A stretch of DNA of 64,000 bases. Source: an uncultured Actinomycetota bacterium. Its GTDB lineage: Bacteria > Actinomycetota > Actinomycetes > JAHEKZ01. Shown one piece after another: positions 5,996 through 53,212 of the stretch. Where the stretch lies: contig CAWHIJ010000003.1 in the NCBI GenBank assembly GCA_963829525.1, positions 320,001 to 384,000 on the forward strand. The letters are read 5' to 3'. Position numbers and translations under genes: made by a program. The notes under the pieces are model-generated. The model had not been told where the DNA came from and ran no database searches. It saw only the letters and a program-made list of their open reading frames with translations. The number at the start of each line of letters is the position of its first letter. Position 1 is the first letter of the stretch.

Positions 5996-6013
5996 AGGGG
6001 TCGTGACGGCGCC

Positions 6014-7378
6014 CTAGACGGCGGGGACGGTGGCCAATGCTGCGGCGAATCGCTCCTCGGACACCGGTTCGTCGGTCATCCGGCCGTCGAGGTAGGCGTC
6101 GTAGGCGGCCAGGTCGAAGTGGCCGTGGCCGCAGAGCGCGGTGAGGATCACCTTCTCTTCACCGGTCTCCTTGCAGCGCAGCGCTTCACGCACCGTCTCG
6201 GCGAGCGCATGGGTCGGCTCAGGTGCCGGCACGATGCCTTCAGTCCGGGCGAACTGGAGCCCGGCGGCGAAGCACTCGCTCTGGCCGATCGCCACGGCGT
6301 CCATCAGCCCGAGCTCGTAGACGTGTGAGATCAGCGGGGCCATGCCGTGGTAGCGCAGCCCACCGGCGTGAATCGGGTCTGGCACGAAGTCGTGGCCGAG
6401 GGTATGCATCTTCATAAGTGGCGTCATGCCGGCGGCGTCACCGAAGTCGTACGCGTATCTGCCGTGCGTGAGGGAGGGGCATGACGCCGGTTCGACGGCG
6501 CGGATGTGCGGGTTGATCTTGCCGGCCAGCTTCTCACGCAGGAAGGGGAACGAGAGGCCGGCAAAGTTGGATCCGCCACCGGTGCATCCGACGATGACGT
6601 CCGGCGTCTCGCCAATCTTGGCGAACTGCAGCAGCGCCTCTTCACCGATGATTGTCTGGTGCATGAGGACGTGGTTGAGCACCGAGCCGAGCGCATACCG
6701 CGTCTCTGGTTCGGTCACGGCGACCTCGACGGCCTCACTGATAGCGATGCCGAGGGAACCGGTGTGGTTCGGGTCGGCGGCAAGGTAGGCGCGTCCGGCC
6801 TGCGTCAGCTCAGATGGTGAACGGTGCACCTTGGCGCCGAACGTCTCGATCATCATGCGGCGGTAGGGCTTCTGGTCGTAAGACGCCCCGACCTGCCAGA
6901 CGTCACACTCGATGCCGAACATTGAGCACGCAAGCGCAAGCGCCGTTCCCCACTGTCCGGCCCCCGTCTCGGTGGTGAGCTTGGTGACGCCTGCCTTGGC
7001 GTTGTAGAACGCCTGCGGCACGGCGGTGTTGGGCTTGTGCGATCCAGCCGGTGAAACACCCTCGTACTTGTAGTAGATCCGCGCGGGAGTACCGAGCGCT
7101 TCCTCGAGGCGGTGCGCACGGAACAGGGGGGACGGACGCCAGAGGCGGTAGATGTCCTGTACTTCATCGGGGATGTCAATGAACCGCTCCGACGAAACCT
7201 CTTGCAGGATGAGGTCCATCGGGAAGAGTGGTGCGAGGTCATCAGGGCCGACGGGCTCGTGCGTTCCGGGGTGCAGCGGAGGCGGTGGAGGAGCCGGCAG
7301 GTCGGGCACGATGTTGTACCACTGTGTAGGCATCTCGGACTCATCGAGAACGATCTTGTGCTGCTTCGGCGCTGACAT
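6014..7378 (-). CDS. trpB2: TrpB-like PLP enzyme (TrpB2 type)
   Basis: GSHKPN PLP lysine, [36 protein letters not shown]. Confidence 0.92.
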
Positions 7379-48145: not shown

Positions 48146-48236
48146 GGAGGCGTCGCCTAGTCCGGTCGATGGCGCCCGCCTGCTAAGCGGGTTGGGGTCT
48201 TAAAGCCCCTCGGGGGTTCAAATCCCCCCGCCTCCG
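48146..48236 (+). tRNA. tRNA-Ser(GCT)
   Basis: GGAGGCG/CGCCTCC stem, CTGCTAA loop, long variable arm, GTTCAAATC. Confidence 0.95.
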
Positions 48237-48249
48237 CCCCGTCAGTCAT

Positions 48250-48307
48250 CGAGACTGCAGTAGATGCCCACTGAGAGCCCTCAGCGCGGGCATCTACTGC
48301 AGTCTCG
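48250..48307. repeat. Perfect 20-bp inverted repeat CGAGACTGCAGTAGATGCCC with an inner stem (REP-like hairpin or terminator)
   Basis: Arms at 48250-48269 and 48288-48307. Confidence 0.85.
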
Positions 48308-48384
48308 GCGGGTTGTTGCGCCCCGGACTCGATTTCGACGCCTGCTGGGCCCCCGGTAAGGTATCGCTTTGGCCCCTGGGCCAT

Positions 48385-48457
48385 GCGCCCGTAGCTCAAC
48401 GGATAGAGCATCTGACTACGGATCAGAAGGTTGGGAGTTCGAATCTCTCCGGGCGCG
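48385..48457 (+). tRNA. tRNA-Arg(ACG)
   Basis: GCGCCCG/CGGGCGC stem, CTACGGA loop, GTTCGAATC. Confidence 0.96.
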
Positions 48458-48737
48458 CAACGTCAGTGTTTGGTTCCGGCTGATGCGTGACGTTTTGGCT
48501 TCGGCTGATGAGTCACGGTGGTTCCGCATGATCGGTGACACTTCTCCGATGTTGGTGGAGCAGAGATTTCAAGTGGTCGACGTGACGGTAACTGCGTTTC
48601 ATTGCCTCTTCGTCGTGGCCACCCCAGACCGCAACCACGTGTCGGGCACACCCTTCGGCGAAGGGTATGGGCTGGCCGGTCTAGTCTTCCGGCGTGGCTC
48701 GTCATGAGCCAGGGCACCGCCGGAGCAGAATCGCGGC

Positions 48738-49373
48738 ATGGCAGCAGAGGACGCGGGGCCGAGACGCCGACGACTGACGACAGGGCGGCTGGAGGCGTTC
48801 AGCGATGGCGTGTTTGCGATCGCGGTCACGTTGCTCATCTTGGATGTTGCGGTTCCGGCGGACTCGGACAGCAATCTTCTCGCATCGATCGGGGACCAGT
48901 GGCCGTCGTACCTGGCCTACCTGGTGAGTTTCTCGACCATAGGGGCGGTTTGGCTGGCGCACACTGTTATCACGGAGTATCTGGATCGTGCCGATGCGGT
49001 ATTCGTGCGGTTGAACCTGCTGCTCCTGCTGGTGGTTTCATTCTTGCCCTTCCCGACTCGGCTATTGGCGGAGTACGTCGAGGAGAGCGGGGCCGAGCGG
49101 GTGGCGGTCACGATCTACGGGATCAACCTCTTTCTCGCGTCGGTCTTGGTGTCAGTTCTGTGGCGCTACGCCGTTCGGGAACGTCTGCTGCGTCCCGATG
49201 CGAACGACGACGATGTCCGACTGTTGACTCGGCGGCTGACACCGGGTCTCGCCGGATACCTGGTCCTGATTGCGCTCGGGCTCTTCCTGCCCGTCGCTGC
49301 GGTGATCGGATACCTGCTGGTCGCGGTCTACTTCATCGTGCCGATAAGGAAGATCCGACACCGACAGACCTGA
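48738..49373 (+). CDS. TMEM175-family potassium channel
   Basis: RLEAFSDGVFAIAVTLL (RxxxFSD), six TM segments. Confidence 0.9.
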   Translation: MAAEDAGPRRRRLTTGRLEAFSDGVFAIAVTLLILDVAVPADSDSNLLASIGDQWPSYLAYLVSFSTIGAVWLAHTVITEYLDRADAVFVRLNLLLLLVVSFLPFPTRLLAEYVEESGAERVAVTIYGINLFLASVLVSVLWRYAVRERLLRPDANDDDVRLLTRRLTPGLAGYLVLIALGLFLPVAAVIGYLLVAVYFIVPIRKIRHRQT

Positions 49374-49504
49374 CCGGCGTTGGGGCGGCGTCTCAACCTG
49401 TGGTGGCACAACTGTCTCGCAACGATGCGATCCACCTGCCGGCTTGGTGACGCGTCCCTCGCAGGGCACGACACCTGTGCAACCCCATGGCACACCAATG
49501 GCCA

Positions 49505-49548
49505 GACTACGGATCAGGAGGTTGGGAGTTCGAATCTCTCCGGGCGCG
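49505..49548 (+). repeat. tRNA-Arg 3'-half direct repeat (att-like), followed by CCA
   Basis: 43/44 identical to 48414-48457. Confidence 0.95.
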
Positions 49549-49673
49549 CCACAGGACGCCAGGTAAGTACCGGTTACTGCGGTGAAAGGACCGGGCGACT
49601 CTGGGCTTTCGGGGCGCATTACTGCAGCGATTACTGCAGTCCAGTTCGGGAGTGTTGCGGGCAGTCTCTGAAC

Positions 49674-49988
49674 CTAACTTGCCGTGGCGTCGCCGGCGAG
49701 GCCGATGAGGGTTGACCAATCGGGCGCTGCAATCAGTCCGTGCTCCACCCGGGGGAAGGGCAGCGCGAGCGGTTCGAGATGGCGCTGAACGTGCCCGCCG
49801 AACCCGTCGTGACCAACACCGGGTCCCCATACCAGCGTGACGAGCAGTCCCGCCTCCCCGCGGGCGACGACAACCGTGTCTGGTGACACGCCCCCCGAGC
49901 CCTGCCAGCGACGCGCTGCTTCTGCGTACCCGGCGAGGAGCACGTCCGGGTCGCCGGGGAAGTGCAGCATGACCACGTCTTGGCTCAT
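49674..49988 (-). CDS. Small hypothetical protein (possibly dimeric alpha/beta barrel)
   Basis: ATG after AAGGAG; divergent from MarR. Confidence 0.6.
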   Translation of the reverse strand: MSQDVVMLHFPGDPDVLLAGYAEAARRWQGSGGVSPDTVVVARGEAGLLVTLVWGPGVGHDGFGGHVQRHLEPLALPFPRVEHGLIAAPDWSTLIGLAGDATAS

Positions 49989-50039
49989 CGCAGGCTCCTT
50001 CAGTATAGTTTCTTTACTGTGAAAGGACGGTACAGGAAT

Positions 50040-50498
50040 TTGACCAACTCGTCTACGACCGGTGCGCCACTGGTAGGTGCACTGCTTCGTCGGCCGTTCT
50101 TCACGATGCGGCGCCGCATCGTGTCGGCCCTGCACCGGGAGGGTTACACAGACGTGCAGGCGTCTCACCTCGCCGTCTTCCAGTACCCCGGACCCGAGGG
50201 ACGGTCACCCCTGGAGTTGGCGCGGGATGCTCAGGTGAGCAAGCAGGTCATGAACCACCTACTCACCCAGCTCGAGCACGGTCAGTACCTGGAGCGGGTC
50301 ATCAATCCCGGCAATCATCGCCTGCGTCAGGTGGCGCTCACGGAGCAGGGCCACGCTGTCGTGGCGGTGATCCGCTCTGCCGTTGCAGAGGTGGAGTCGG
50401 AGTGGAAGACGGTCCTGGGACCAAGCACCTATCGACAACTGCGTGGCGCCTTGTTGGAACTCGCTGGCCATCTCGAGCTACCCGAGGGGGATCGCTGA
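50040..50498 (+). CDS. MarR-family regulator
   Basis: ELARDAQVSKQVMNHLLTQLEHGQYLER..LTEQG winged helix; CAGTATAG-TTT-CTTTACTG inverted repeat at 50001-50019. Confidence 0.85.
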   Translation: MTNSSTTGAPLVGALLRRPFFTMRRRIVSALHREGYTDVQASHLAVFQYPGPEGRSPLELARDAQVSKQVMNHLLTQLEHGQYLERVINPGNHRLRQVALTEQGHAVVAVIRSAVAEVESEWKTVLGPSTYRQLRGALLELAGHLELPEGDR

Positions 50499-50528
50499 GC
50501 CCGCGATCCCGTGGGGGAGCGGCCCGCG

Positions 50529-50601
50529 ACCGCGGACGACGTCGGCAGAACCGTGGCCCGGGCCATCGAGGCGGGTGTGGTGGGTGGCAACATCGAGGAT
50601 T
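50529..50601 (+). pseudogene. Fragment of an ICL/PEP-mutase family gene
   Basis: TADDVGRTVARAIEAGVVGGNIED is 19/24 aa identical to the intact gene at 52676-52748. Confidence 0.7.
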
Positions 50602-50752
50602 TCGGGCCGAATGATTTGATCAGCGATGGTGCCCTTGCCTTACTGCAACCGTTACTGCAACGCCGAGGAACTGAGGGAGACTCCGGAACACTTCCTGAGA
50701 ATGACGTGAGCGTGCTGACACGTCAGGAGACGTGGTGAGACGGCAAAACTAG

Positions 50753-50796
50753 GACTACGGATCAGAAGGTTGGGAGTTCGAATCTGTCCGGTCGCG
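50753..50796 (+). repeat. tRNA-Arg 3'-half direct repeat (att-like)
   Basis: 42/44 identical to 48414-48457. Confidence 0.95.
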
Positions 50797-51011
50797 CAAC
50801 ATTGCTGCAGGTCAGACGCACCGCGCCGCAGCCGACACCATCTCGACACCGGTGCAAGGGCACAGATACCTCGGTGAAGGAACTGTTTGACCGCCTCCGG
50901 GCATACGGGTTCTTTCCCCTGGTCCTGCTGGATGTTTTCGTTCTCGTCAAGGTCACCGACGATGGCGACCCAACGACTGCGTGCGCTGCTCACTGGGATG
51001 AATCTGACCGC

Positions 51012-51048
51012 ACCACGGATCAGGGGGGGGGGCTTTCGACTGCGTCCG
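51012..51048 (+). repeat. Degenerate tRNA-Arg 3'-half copy
   Basis: Gapless 26/37 match retaining ACGGATCAG..TTCGA..TCCG at the correct spacing. Confidence 0.5.
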
Positions 51049-51124
51049 ACCTATGGATGGCTTTGGCCTCTACCACGCCTCGCATTAGGTCGCCACGATC
51101 GAATTGTCAGGGGGGGTGGATGTC

Positions 51125-51496
51125 ATGACAGCCCCAGTCAGCCAGCGTCCAGTGGTTCCCAAGTCGACGCAATCCGCGTGGCTTGTCCTCGCTGTTGGCA
51201 CGCTTGTTACGTTCTTCCTGGGCGTGGCCTCGCAGTTGGCCGTCTTCATCTCTCTCGGTCTCTGCCTGGACGAGGATCCGGACTTGTGCGATCCGGGCAC
51301 GTATCCCACGACGGCCGAGCATCTGCTCGCCACGATCCCGACCTACGCCCTGTGGGTGGCGCCGGCACTCGTCGCGGTGTTCATGGGATACCGGATCGTG
51401 AAGTCCGGGAACGTTGCCGGGCGCACCGTGATGGTCACCGCGGGTGTCGTTGCTGCTCTCGTGACGGTGGTCGCGACGCTCATGTGGTGGATTTGA
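51125..51496 (+). CDS. Small hypothetical membrane protein (3 TM, Cys-x6-Cys loop)
   Basis: Hydrophobic ORF with high-GC codon usage. Confidence 0.6.
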   Translation: MTAPVSQRPVVPKSTQSAWLVLAVGTLVTFFLGVASQLAVFISLGLCLDEDPDLCDPGTYPTTAEHLLATIPTYALWVAPALVAVFMGYRIVKSGNVAGRTVMVTAGVVAALVTVVATLMWWI

Positions 51497-51524
51497 TTTC
51501 ACGGGTGCAACTGGCTGGGAATTG

Positions 51525-51552
51525 GGGAGTTCGAATCTCTCCGGGCGCACCA
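51525..51552 (+). repeat. tRNA-Arg T-arm/acceptor direct repeat (att-like) ending ACCA
   Basis: GGGAGTTCGAATCTCTCCGGGCGC is 24/24 identical to the tRNA 3' end. Confidence 0.9.
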
Positions 51553-51570
51553 CGTAACGTTCGCCTTAAG

Positions 51571-52146
51571 TCAATTTGGGCTGGGTAGCTCCCTCGGGGA
51601 GTACACGAGGCGCAGAACTCCCGTCGGGAAAGCTTGTGAGCTCACAAGGTCCATTGGGTAGATCGGCTCGCCGTCGTCGAACAGTCTCATACCGGTTCGC
51701 GCTGCAACGGGGTGCACCAGCAACCGTAGTTCGTCGAGCAGCTCCGCTGCGAGTAGTTGTCGCACTACCGAGATTGACCCCGCTACCAGGATCTTGTCCA
51801 TCGTCGCTTCGCGCTTCAGCGCCGTCACGGCTTCGATCAAGTCGCCGTGCACCGCGTGCACATTTCGCCAGCCAAGATCCTGGCCCCTATGTGTGGCAAC
51901 GAGTTTGGGGGTGTCTCCAAGCTGAGCGGCGAACGTCGAGTCCTCACCTCCGGCGGCCTCGCGCTCTGGCCAAGCACCGGCGAAGCTGTCGTAGGTGACT
52001 CGTCCCAGAAGGAGGAGGTCCACGTCTTCGTAGTCCTCGCTCACCGCTGCACCCATGTTTGCGTCGAAGTATGGGGAGTGCCAGACGGGGTCTACTTCCA
52101 CCACGCCGTCAAGCGCCATGAACAACGTGGAAACGATCTTGGTCAT
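51571..52146 (-). CDS. Dihydrofolate reductase/RibD C-terminal family protein
   Basis: FMALDGV, LLLGRVTY, GSISVV, LLDELRLLVHPV. Confidence 0.88.
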   Translation of the reverse strand: MTKIVSTLFMALDGVVEVDPVWHSPYFDANMGAAVSEDYEDVDLLLLGRVTYDSFAGAWPEREAAGGEDSTFAAQLGDTPKLVATHRGQDLGWRNVHAVHGDLIEAVTALKREATMDKILVAGSISVVRQLLAAELLDELRLLVHPVAARTGMRLFDDGEPIYPMDLVSSQAFPTGVLRLVYSPRELPSPN

Positions 52147-52396: not shown

Positions 52397-53212
52397 GTGA
52401 CAGCCAAATCTCCGATGAACAGGGCAGCTGCCCTCCTTGCTTTGCACACCGGCCCCGGCTTCGTGCTCCCCAATGCGTGGGACGCGGGATCCGCCCGCGT
52501 CCTCGAGCAGGTCGGCTTCCCCGCCATCGCCACCACCAGCGCCGGCATCGCCTGGTCGTGCGGAGTTCCGGACGGAGAAGCGCTGGACCGCGACACGATG
52601 CTTGACCACGTGGCGCGCATCGTGGCTGCGGTGGGTGTGCCCGTGACCGCGGACCTCGAAGCCGGGTACGGCGACACCGCGGACGCTGTCGGCATCACCG
52701 TTGCCCGGGCAGTCGAACTGGGTGCCGTTGGCGGCAACATTGAGGATTCCAGGGCTGGCGGACTGATCAGCATCGATGAGGCCGTCGACCGTCTTGCGGC
52801 CGCCCGGGCAGCCGGGCCCAGCGGCACCTTCGTGCTGAACGCCCGAACTGACACCTACTTCGTCGGTACGAGTGGTGACGCATTCGACGAGACCGTCGAA
52901 CGCGCAGTTAGGTACGTCGAAGCGGGCGCCGACTGCGTCTTCGTGCCCGGGGTCGTTGAAGAGGAGACGATCCGCCAACTCTCCGAGGCCATCCCCGGCC
53001 CGCTCAACGTGGTAGCCGGGCTTGCGAACCTCATCGATGCGCCGACACTCTTCTCGCTTGGCGTCAAACGGGTCAGCCTGGGCGGCAGTTTGGCACGCGC
53101 CACACTTAGCACGTTGGAGCGCGCCGGCCGCGAGCTGCTTGACTCCGGAACGCTCGACTTCCTCGACGGCGCGATCGGGTACGCCGATCTGCAGCGACGC
53201 TTTGGCTCGTGA
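52397..53212 (+). CDS. Isocitrate lyase/PEP mutase family protein
   Basis: PNAWDAGSA, ATTSAG, DLEAGYG, GNIED, NARTD, GADCVFVP. Confidence 0.9.
   Translation: MTAKSPMNRAAALLALHTGPGFVLPNAWDAGSARVLEQVGFPAIATTSAGIAWSCGVPDGEALDRDTMLDHVARIVAAVGVPVTADLEAGYGDTADAVGITVARAVELGAVGGNIEDSRAGGLISIDEAVDRLAAARAAGPSGTFVLNARTDTYFVGTSGDAFDETVERAVRYVEAGADCVFVPGVVEEETIRQLSEAIPGPLNVVAGLANLIDAPTLFSLGVKRVSLGGSLARATLSTLERAGRELLDSGTLDFLDGAIGYADLQRRFGS

Follow-up and report, generated by a model that had tools for sequence, protein, structure and literature searches.

A 1.25-kb cassette lies behind a tRNA-Arg(ACG) gene in the 64,000-nt stretch of contig CAWHIJ010000003.1 (positions 320,001 to 384,000; assembly GCA_963829525.1 of an uncultured Actinomycetota bacterium) that was analysed here and is called the window below. 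The cassette is flanked by copies of the tRNA 3' end, which would serve as attachment (att) sites, and carries inside each end a tandem pair of the short motif TTACTGCA. Comparison with related elements makes it highly probable that these pairs are the arm sites of an att-flanked remnant without an integrase. The likeliest explanation is that the cassette is a decayed element which may still be mobilisable in trans; what is said below on integrase binding, crossover position and present mobility is predicted. The initial annotation of the window had described a non-autonomous element of a tyrosine recombinase, similar to the miniature inverted-repeat transposable elements (MITEs). This interpretation was right in substance; the MITE analogy was overstated and present mobility is unproven. 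The features that carry the argument are the following.

48385-48458, plus strand: tRNA-Arg(ACG), intact target gene with which the array starts (ARAGORN; Rfam tRNA, 69 bits)
49505-49549, plus strand: att copy 1, the attL core of the cassette, 97.8% identical to 48414-48458
49559-49567, plus strand: post-core 9-mer CCAGGTAAG, which aligns with the conserved GCAGGTCAG of related elements (compared over all core flanks)
49570-49594, plus strand: third repeat copy, TTACTGCG at 49574 (7/8 match), inside a short hairpin CCGGT...ACCGG (read from the sequence)
49619-49639, plus strand: putative left (P') arm pair, TTACTGCAG-CGA-TTACTGCAG, 12-bp period
50640-50661, plus strand: putative right (P) arm pair, TTACTGCAAC-CG-TTACTGCAAC, 12-bp period
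50753-50797, plus strand: att copy 2, forming the attR core; 95.6% identity with the tRNA 3' end

The 3'-terminal 45 nt of the tRNA-Arg(ACG) gene (48414-48458, from the anticodon loop to the acceptor end) are repeated downstream several times. The att repeats described earlier at both ends of the cassette are real and correspond to 45-nt copies of this segment. The two cores are identical across the 13-nt anticodon-loop stretch GACTACGGATCAG, which opens the repeat. The left pair starts 69-70 bp beyond the tRNA-like end, and the right pair ends 91 bp ahead of the next tRNA repeat. The hairpin containing the third repeat copy occupies the same place as the terminator-like hairpin of related left ends.

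In the window TTACTGCA occurs four times, each time within one of the two pairs; the expected mean was 0.30, and none of 100 dinucleotide-preserving shuffles reached four. The genome sequence of the bacterium (2.96 Mb, G+C content 65%) contains 15 copies on both strands and no tandem TTACTGCA pair beyond the two in the cassette. The main contig has 287 exact pairs of at least 8 nt with a period of 12, a density of about 0.1 per kb. A chance origin of the pairs was ruled out by the shuffles and the genome-wide counts, because here one rare motif is paired at both ends of one 1.25-kb unit. The paired, same-strand repeats with a 12-bp period had been reported in the initial annotation, and their coordinates and distances were confirmed.

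The arrangement of the pairs was compared with that of integrase-bearing elements. Offsets were measured from the T-loop of the adjacent core to the first repeat, and the order to which the bacterium belongs was represented by 20 species genomes, all from one family. In the cassette the offsets are +92 on the left and -135 on the right, with a period of 12 and the repeats on the same strand. The integrase-bearing elements have offsets of +91 to +95 on the left and -133 to -135 on the right (both ends were measured in five elements, the left end only in two). Three of these elements, about 9-12.5 kb long, are located at the same tRNA-Arg in the genomes G007, G016 and G006, and each encodes a tyrosine integrase of 400-402 amino acids (aa). 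Their repeats have the core CAGCTATG and form tandem pairs inside both ends, with a 12-bp period, the same orientation and offsets of +94 and -133. The two pairs in G006 enclose a tandem of two islets. The G007 element also encodes a TrwC-type relaxase, a HipA-like pair and an ABC ATPase, and was therefore classified as an integrative mobilizable element (IME). Another element of this type is present in the bacterium's own genome (G000).

G000:C3:486550-498207, outside the window: element of 11.6 kb at tRNA-Pro(CGG); it encodes an intact integrase of 403 aa, carries TGGTCACAGGA arm pairs at either end and has GCAGGTCAG after the tRNA end

The pairs of this element consist of the repeat GGTCACAGGA and have offsets of +91 and -134. 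Of all tRNA genes that ARAGORN called in the genome, that of tRNA-Pro(CGG) alone is followed by such a pair within 150 nt, and the element is the only apparently complete integrative element of its type there. Since period, strand and distance from the core match those of the integrase-bearing elements, the repeats of the cassette can be regarded as arm-type sites, as had been suggested in the initial annotation. Thus, the cassette appears to share the arm layout of this integrase family but to use a third repeat sequence. Tandem pairs with an 11-12-bp period were also found with other integrases of the order (loci L069, L071, L073 and L085). Three of these pairs are 60-78 nt from the tRNA end (AACTGAGACCAA at tRNA-Thr, TAGGGCACGGC at tRNA-Gly and TGCGGACTCAT at tRNA-Met), and the fourth, TGGCAGCCACGC, belongs to L071, a locus without an ARAGORN tRNA call. 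It seems that every integrase uses an arm word of its own.

Other shared motifs were noticed close to the cores. The sequence GCAGGTCA(G/A) is found about 10 nt past the tRNA end in nearly all left ends, at tRNA-Arg and tRNA-Pro alike (e.g. 50806-50814, L047:126-134, and in L022 after the core at 488), and may be a common binding site for some partner. An inverted TGACCTGC, or a sequence near to it, is located within the P arm of the elements with CAGCTATG repeats (type 1) and of the tRNA-Pro elements. At about 480-630 of locus L065 (G015:C256) a tRNA-like gene, which we read as tRNA-Pro(GGG), precedes GCAGGTCAG, a hairpin and the GCTGCTGCAGCCA-CTACTGCAGCCA pair; no integrase is visible on this contig, which stops 480 bp further on.

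TACTGCA-N5-TACTGCA was searched for in 401 genomes of the class, 23 of which contained a total of 25 matches. Eighteen of these lie beside a tRNA or tRNA fragment with the layout described above, seven of them in the order, seven in a different family (f48) and four in a third family (f3); the other seven are in coding or unrelated DNA. All seven matches of the order are beside a tRNA-Arg core. In f48, six of the seven are about 70 nt past a tRNA-Arg(ACG) gene or its 3' fragment (ARAGORN called a tRNA in three of the seven).

Two f48 genomes, G066 and G231, have a full-length tyrosine integrase gene whose 3' end directly adjoins the TACTGCA left pair. The predicted proteins (474 and at least 464 aa, respectively) are 64% identical, and that of G066 is 43-46% identical to the tRNA-Arg integrases of the order, in the N-terminal and catalytic parts alike. 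From its position, the G066-type integrase probably binds the TACTGCA repeats. The TACTGCA elements at tRNA-Arg(ACG) in f48 have offsets of +93 to +95 and -135. In G199 a 7.7-kb unit has TACTGCA pairs at +95 and -135, and its integrase gene is reduced to the last 118 codons; this unit appears to be a second, independent case of decay in which both arms were retained. An integrase of this kind is what the initial annotation had asked to be identified; in the bacterium's own genome and order none with TACTGCA arms was found. The model of the N-terminal region of the G066 integrase (mean predicted local distance difference test score 65) consists of three strands followed by a helix. A fold search with this model gave no significant match to an arm-binding domain; the hits AP2 (2gcc, Z 4.1) and the N-terminal domain of Tn916 Int (1bb8, Z 3.6) were both within the noise range.

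The four matches in f3 (loci L114, L116, L117 and L118) are right-type pairs, TACTGCAAC, located about 110 nt upstream of a tRNA-like 3' segment. They have the form TACTGCAA(C/T)G(C/A)GTACTGCAAC and precede a conserved GGTCCTGAT(A/G)AGGAAG segment, which in two of the four loci is followed by a tRNA-like T-arm and CCA end. The TACTGCA specificity seems to be used at another tRNA in large-genome actinomycetes. Two metagenome contigs with a G+C content of 34-37% (L091, positions 6009-6663, and L094) contain tRNA-Gly(TCC), a hairpin and a TTTACTGCAGG-TTTTACTGCAAC pair with a 12-bp period, and downstream of the pair a truncated integrase gene (158 aa) and a restriction-modification cluster. Arm motif and layout recur here in a low-GC organism that is very distant.

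The right end of the cassette was also found in other genomes of the order.

50640-50752, plus strand: right module (putative P arm), defined by homology with six other genomes
50702-50725, plus strand: palindrome TGACGTG-N10-CACGTCA within the right module

A 160-bp block extending from the first right repeat into the core is present in 7 of the 20 genomes (G000, G015, G008, G019, G003, G006 and G009, in G009 twice in tandem) and is 83-97% identical to the window. The first repeat is the exact left border of the homology, the right border lies in the core, and the DNA upstream is unrelated. The right pair is at -135 in all six other genomes. The cargo next to the module differs: G019 has a 5.6-kb set (TetR, AMP-dependent ligase, S15 peptidase and an MDMPI-like protein), and G008 has a different MarR protein (26% identity) and another open reading frame (ORF). 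The module was compared with the neighbouring housekeeping gene corA, which in G008, G003, G009, G019 and G015 is 81, 73, 72, 74 and 71% identical to that of the window; the corresponding values for the module are 91, 86, 86, 91 and 95-97%. Other intergenic DNA could be aligned in G008 only. A non-coding module that is more conserved than corA points to selection or recent movement. The palindrome in G019 has one compensatory double change (TGATGTG...CACATCA, alignment A1), suggesting that the inverted repeat itself is maintained. The most extensive match was found in G015, a member of a different genus, which has 770 bp in common with the window (50030-50799, comprising the MarR gene, the gene fragment, the module and the core; 97% identity) and an unrelated flank past the core. 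This indicates horizontal exchange bounded on the right by the att core.

No recombinase gene was detected, whether in the cassette, elsewhere in the 64-kb window or at the right-module loci, and tblastn searches with three integrase queries likewise gave no match in the window or at those loci. The cassette must therefore be non-autonomous, its own segment having no recombinase. With both arms present, excision would join P arm, core and P' arm, as stated in the initial annotation. Five proteins encoded by the genome matched PF00589, none of them near tRNA-Arg: the tRNA-Pro integrase, two pieces of one broken gene, and two others that by length and score are probably XerC/D-like. The one intact tRNA-type integrase of the genome thus has other arm repeats and another tRNA. 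No TACTGCA-type integrase turned up when the order was searched with the PF00589 profile, the pair pattern allowing at most one mismatch, inspection of 20 integrase loci for tandem pairs, and the f48 integrase protein as query. Several other arm motifs were seen beside other tRNAs in this search. In G015 the contigs with candidate integrases (C241, C192 and C52) have no TACTGCA pair. Thirteen of the 20 assemblies of the order consist of at least 100 contigs. Binned assemblies (metagenome-assembled genomes, MAGs) often lose mobile DNA. For both reasons, the absence of the integrase is weak evidence.

Larger sequence collections were also scanned. In the collection of genome contigs the right pair with the exact core, a pattern that misses module copies with variant cores, was found at two loci only (L086 and L087, both in actinomycete MAGs), with no integrase within 10 kb. 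The core with the left pair was found at ten loci among metagenome contigs. One of these is a 98.7% identical copy of the window, two represent the low-GC tRNA-Gly locus with the TTTACTGCAGG pair and the truncated integrase, another has a 3' end resembling that of a tRNA or tmRNA but no integrase, and six are coding or unrelated. Four loci found among viral contigs are all unrelated low-GC coding sequence. No excision or circle joint was supported by the contigs of four metagenome runs (from four studies) over 48300-51700, a weak test based on contigs only, in which uncovered parts are silent. A joint from 48460 to 50755 was discarded; it was seen in a single contig with only 26 nt on the shorter side. 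Rfam detected nothing but two tRNAs over the locus.

The cassette carries two genes and a gene fragment.

49674-49991, minus strand: ORF of 105 aa (ORF105), cargo without family match
49999-50023, plus strand: imperfect palindrome TTCAGTA-N-TACTGTGAA between the divergent genes, candidate operator
50040-50498, plus strand: gene of a MarR-family regulator, 152 aa (the TTG start was chosen by us), divergent from ORF105
50511-50624, plus strand: internal fragment (96-114 nt) of a phosphoenolpyruvate (PEP)-mutase/isocitrate-lyase family gene, pseudogene piece

ORF105 had no match in Pfam or NCBIfam and is absent from all 19 other genomes of the order; the left half of the cassette was not found in these genomes either. 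The MarR gene matched Pfam MarR_2 and HTH_20 below threshold and gave weak NCBIfam matches of MarR type; the protein is 97% identical to its G015 counterpart. The divergent genes with the palindrome between them could plausibly form a self-regulated MarR/target pair. The palindrome overlaps TTACTGTGAAAGGAC (50014-50028), a repeat of 49574-49592. The gapped motif TTACTG-N0-3-TGAAAGGAC has only these two matches in the genome (49574-49592 in the form TTACTG(CGG)TGAAAGGAC, and 50014-50028), and they bracket the left pair and ORF105. Within the PEP-mutase fragment, 50529-50624 is 74% identical to 52676-52771 of an intact gene (52397-53212) located 2 kb downstream; the fragment covers only positions 83-108 of the Pfam PEP_mutase profile.

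Four islets, A to D, stand in tandem after the one tRNA gene, and the cassette is the second of them.

48146-48238, plus strand: tRNA-Ser(GCT) (ARAGORN)
48459-49504, plus strand: islet A, which precedes the cassette and contains a TMEM175-like channel gene (48738-49373)
49550-50797: islet B, the cassette, 1,248 bp
50798-51551, plus strand: islets C and D, short, with decayed att copies (about 51005-51048 and 51521-51551)

Islet C starts with the family motif GCAGGTCAG. The degenerate third att copy (about 51005-51048) is 70% identical over 44 nt and includes a ten-G run at 51022-51033; the fourth att remnant is a 24-nt tRNA piece at 51525-51548. At the left end of islet A, 11 nt past the intact tRNA-Arg gene, there are three direct repeats of about 24 nt (TTTGGTTCCGGCTGATGCGTGACG and variants, 48469-48540, spacing 25 and 23), which may be arm sites of another integrase type with another layout. 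In runs X1 and X5, from two studies, one contig each lacks the end of islet A and has instead 11 or 8 letters of the tRNA-Arg gene (ATAGAGCATCT) that run straight into att copy 1. With such short overhangs, this is a weak hint that in some cells the cassette follows the tRNA directly, without islet A. The interval between tRNA-Ser and tRNA-Arg contains a 58-bp element (48250-48307), a perfect hairpin with a 20-bp stem that includes ACTGCAGT. The TACTGCAG hairpin at this position was considered as an extra arm site and rejected: it is missing in the closest relative, G008, and the genome has a second, slightly diverged copy elsewhere (G000:C3:478797-478854, about 56 bp from tRNA-Ser(GGA)). It looks like a small palindromic repeat family near tRNA-Ser genes, unrelated to the arms.

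These data are consistent with the following mechanism. A heterobivalent tyrosine integrase directed at the 3' end of tRNA-Arg(ACG) would bind the TTACTGCA pairs by its N-terminal domain, with the left pair as P' arm in attL and the right pair as P arm in attR. By analogy with lambda-type integrases, the other domains would act on the tRNA-derived core, and crossover would likely take place in GACTACGGATCAG. The segment 49550-50797 would then be what was left of an integrative element after loss of the integrase and all mobility genes, and the four-islet array would have arisen by repeated integration at one tRNA. An incoming TACTGCA-type tRNA-Arg integrase, probably together with a directionality factor, could recombine attL with attR to give a 1.25-kb circle with P arm, core and P' arm; without a cognate integrase the cassette would stay fixed. 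Alternatively, an incoming element could integrate alongside and carry the cassette in cis, as outlined for tandems of cis-mobilizable elements (CIMEs) with integrative and conjugative elements (ICEs) in PMC5704250. That the cassette can be mobilised in trans today we regard as possible, with the balance somewhat on the doubtful side.

A number of observations weigh against a single element that has kept two working ends. Att copy 2 has two substitutions, and CCAGGTAAG differs from the family consensus GCAGGTCAG in 2 of 9 bases. The tRNA-Pro integrase matched Pfam Arm-DNA-bind_4 with an E-value of 1.8e-4 and 21.5 bits, below the cut-off of 22.3. A TACTGCA-type integrase was found neither in the bacterium's own genome nor in the other 19 of the order nor by the scans of the larger collections, and the candidates from the sequence comparison sit in a different family. 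No matching left pair is present in the six other right-module genomes, and most module copies are apparently one-armed relics. The left pair and ORF105 were found only in the bacterium's own genome and the 98.7% identical metagenome contig. The PEP-mutase fragment in the cargo points to decay. Both core copies of G015 bear that genome's own T-stem variant, which is not predicted by a simple recent integrase-mediated transfer; gene conversion between the G015 core repeats is a possibility. Finally, 50030 is the end point of the G015 contig and also of an independent metagenome contig (run X10), and it lies two bases past the second TTACTG..TGAAAGGAC copy. This position may be a recombination or deletion junction, and the cassette may accordingly be a mosaic.

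The strongest competitor, with a chance not far short of even, is that the cassette is a dead fossil: the repeats were true arm sites of a past element, recombination has been lost, and the conservation reflects recent common descent or transfer. The structural reading is the same in this case, and only present function is disputed. The lack of a cognate integrase in the genome and order, the six of seven genomes having the right module only, the pseudogene fragment and the degenerate post-core motif all agree with it, as does, weakly, the lack of an excision joint in the metagenome contigs. However, an integrase donor could have been missed in the binned and fragmented assemblies, and a module with 83-97% identity where corA has 71-81%, joined moreover to unrelated cargo, argues for selection on the module or repeated recent movement. 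Rather unlikely, in our estimate, is a composite origin, in which the left half (att copy 1, left pair and ORF105; 49505-50029) and the right half (MarR gene, PEP-mutase fragment and module; 50030-50797) come from separate events and the matched arms never belonged to one element. The G015 match, confined to 50030-50799 with its contig ending there, the X10 contig starting at 50030, the missing left pair and ORF105 in the other 19 genomes, and the 15-nt repeat TTACTG..TGAAAGGAC flanking the left half (49574 and 50014) and found nowhere else in the genome would all fit such an origin. Contig ends are weak evidence, however; the left half and its junctions are intact in the 98.7% identical metagenome contig and in one contig from another study, and the same rare motif in the same orientation with offsets fitting one attP is better explained by one element. 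Even a composite would still offer a usable attL and attR of one specificity.

Two other explanations leave the integrase out, and both are very improbable. If the TTACTG repeats were operators bound by the MarR protein of the cassette, the TACTG half-site in the palindrome between ORF105 and the MarR gene would be accounted for, and so would the six occurrences of TTACTG in the cassette, on one strand only. But MarR dimers usually bind inverted repeats, and tandem direct repeats at a fixed distance from a tRNA core are the pattern of arm sites. Moreover, the right pair and module are also joined to TetR-led cargo in G019 and to the 26% identical MarR protein in G008, and in f48 the same motif with the same offsets is next to integrase genes. 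There is equally little to be expected from a module that merely contains the repeats and is itself a small RNA, a regulatory element or an attC-like, integron-style site. Its strong conservation, its sharp borders, its position at the 3' end of variable cargo in arrays, its tandem duplication in G009 and the one compensatory change in the internal palindrome could be cited for such a unit; yet the module always ends in a tRNA core and has the offsets of the P arms of integrase-bearing elements, the only Rfam matches were the two tRNAs, and no integron integrase or other recombinase is nearby. More far-reaching, and improbable although less so than the last two, is that the tRNA-Arg(ACG) locus of the order serves as a cassette platform, where short integrase-less units (each defined by a selectively maintained 160-bp P-arm module, in the best case with a P' pair) are captured, shuffled and passed between genera in trans instead of merely decaying. 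The enzymes would be tRNA-Arg integrases on mobilizable islands missed by MAG binning. If true, tyrosine integrases would here support a form of parasitism analogous to that of MITEs or integron cassettes. Taken together, we prefer the decayed element with arm sites at both ends.

The locus is a clean natural example of how tRNA-linked islets build up and decay in an uncultured actinomycete lineage, and it illustrates that a tiny islet can retain the full arm pair after loss of the enzyme. Its main value is comparative, in the swapped arm specificities and in a relic P-arm module conserved beyond expectation. Related integrases with one core target have different arms of 12-bp period, CAGCTATG and TACTGCA, and at tRNA-Pro the arm repeat is GGTCACAGGA. 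With 43-46% identity between the two arm types, the tRNA-Arg integrases provide comparative material for the way in which the N-terminal domain reads the arms, and the same set could serve in the choice of orthogonal integrase/att pairs for actinomycete genetics. The conservation of the module above a housekeeping gene raises the question whether one-armed relics still serve as landing or exit sites.

Among known systems the cassette is closest to the CIMEs, defined in PMC5704250 as decayed ICEs or IMEs which retain attL and attR and form tandems by integration, decay and re-integration. It matches this definition and the three-step model of tandem accretion given in the same review. The two tRNA 3'-end copies (97.8% and 95.6%) are direct repeats as attL and attR should be. 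Genes for integration, excision or transfer are lacking: the cassette has ORF105, the MarR-like gene and the PEP-mutase fragment, with no PF00589 match near the locus. Related autonomous elements occupy the same att site, those of G007, G016 and G006 with a different arm motif and those of f48 (G066 and G231) with TACTGCA. The CIMEs of the ICESt1/ICESt3 group of Streptococcus thermophilus, described in the same source, likewise form tandems with further islets behind a target gene, at its 3' end. In contrast to these, the cassette is very small (1.25 kb, two genes and a fragment) and is located at tRNA-Arg(ACG) in an uncultured actinomycete; no functional ICE or IME of the same arm specificity was found in the same genome or order, and mobilisation would here be by analogy only.

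In the cassette, as expected for heterobivalent att sites, arm repeats flank the core on either side and keep the conserved orientation and distance. In the attP sites of mycobacteriophages (L5, Giles and Cluster K), pairs of arm repeats flank a core derived from a tRNA or tmRNA, a stem-loop terminator separates the core from one of the pairs, and the arm sequences of related integrases with the same core can differ (PMC3203893). The layout resembles that of the cassette arms. However, the phage attP is complete and has the integrase gene alongside, whereas in the cassette the arms are split over attL and attR and there is no integrase; the autonomous relative examined here is a mobilizable island with a TrwC relaxase, not a phage. 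In phage lambda the N-terminal domain of the integrase binds the arms of attP (P1 and P2, core, P'1-P'3), and excision by attL x attR recombination restores attP. The logic is the same as that proposed for the cassette, but there is no sequence relation, and the number and spacing of the repeats and the tRNA core differ. Actinobacterial integrative and conjugative elements (AICEs) are integrated into specific tRNA genes by tyrosine integrases, according to PMC2440964. No AICE replication or FtsK-type transfer genes were seen here, and the autonomous relative has a TrwC-type relaxase.

Like MITEs, the cassette is small and non-autonomous and would depend on an enzyme supplied in trans. Its ends, however, are direct instead of inverted repeats, there is no target-site duplication, and the whole cassette is present in one copy in its genome, where the other two matches are att copies; its left half is in no other genome of the order. 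The MITE-like character assumed in the initial annotation was therefore dropped in favour of the CIME class. Integron cassettes are similar in having a conserved recombination module at one end of variable cargo in an array, but no attC-like site and no IntI were found, and the module ends in a tRNA core. The cassette thus belongs to a known type of mobile element, of which it is a small, stranded remnant, and does not represent a new one.

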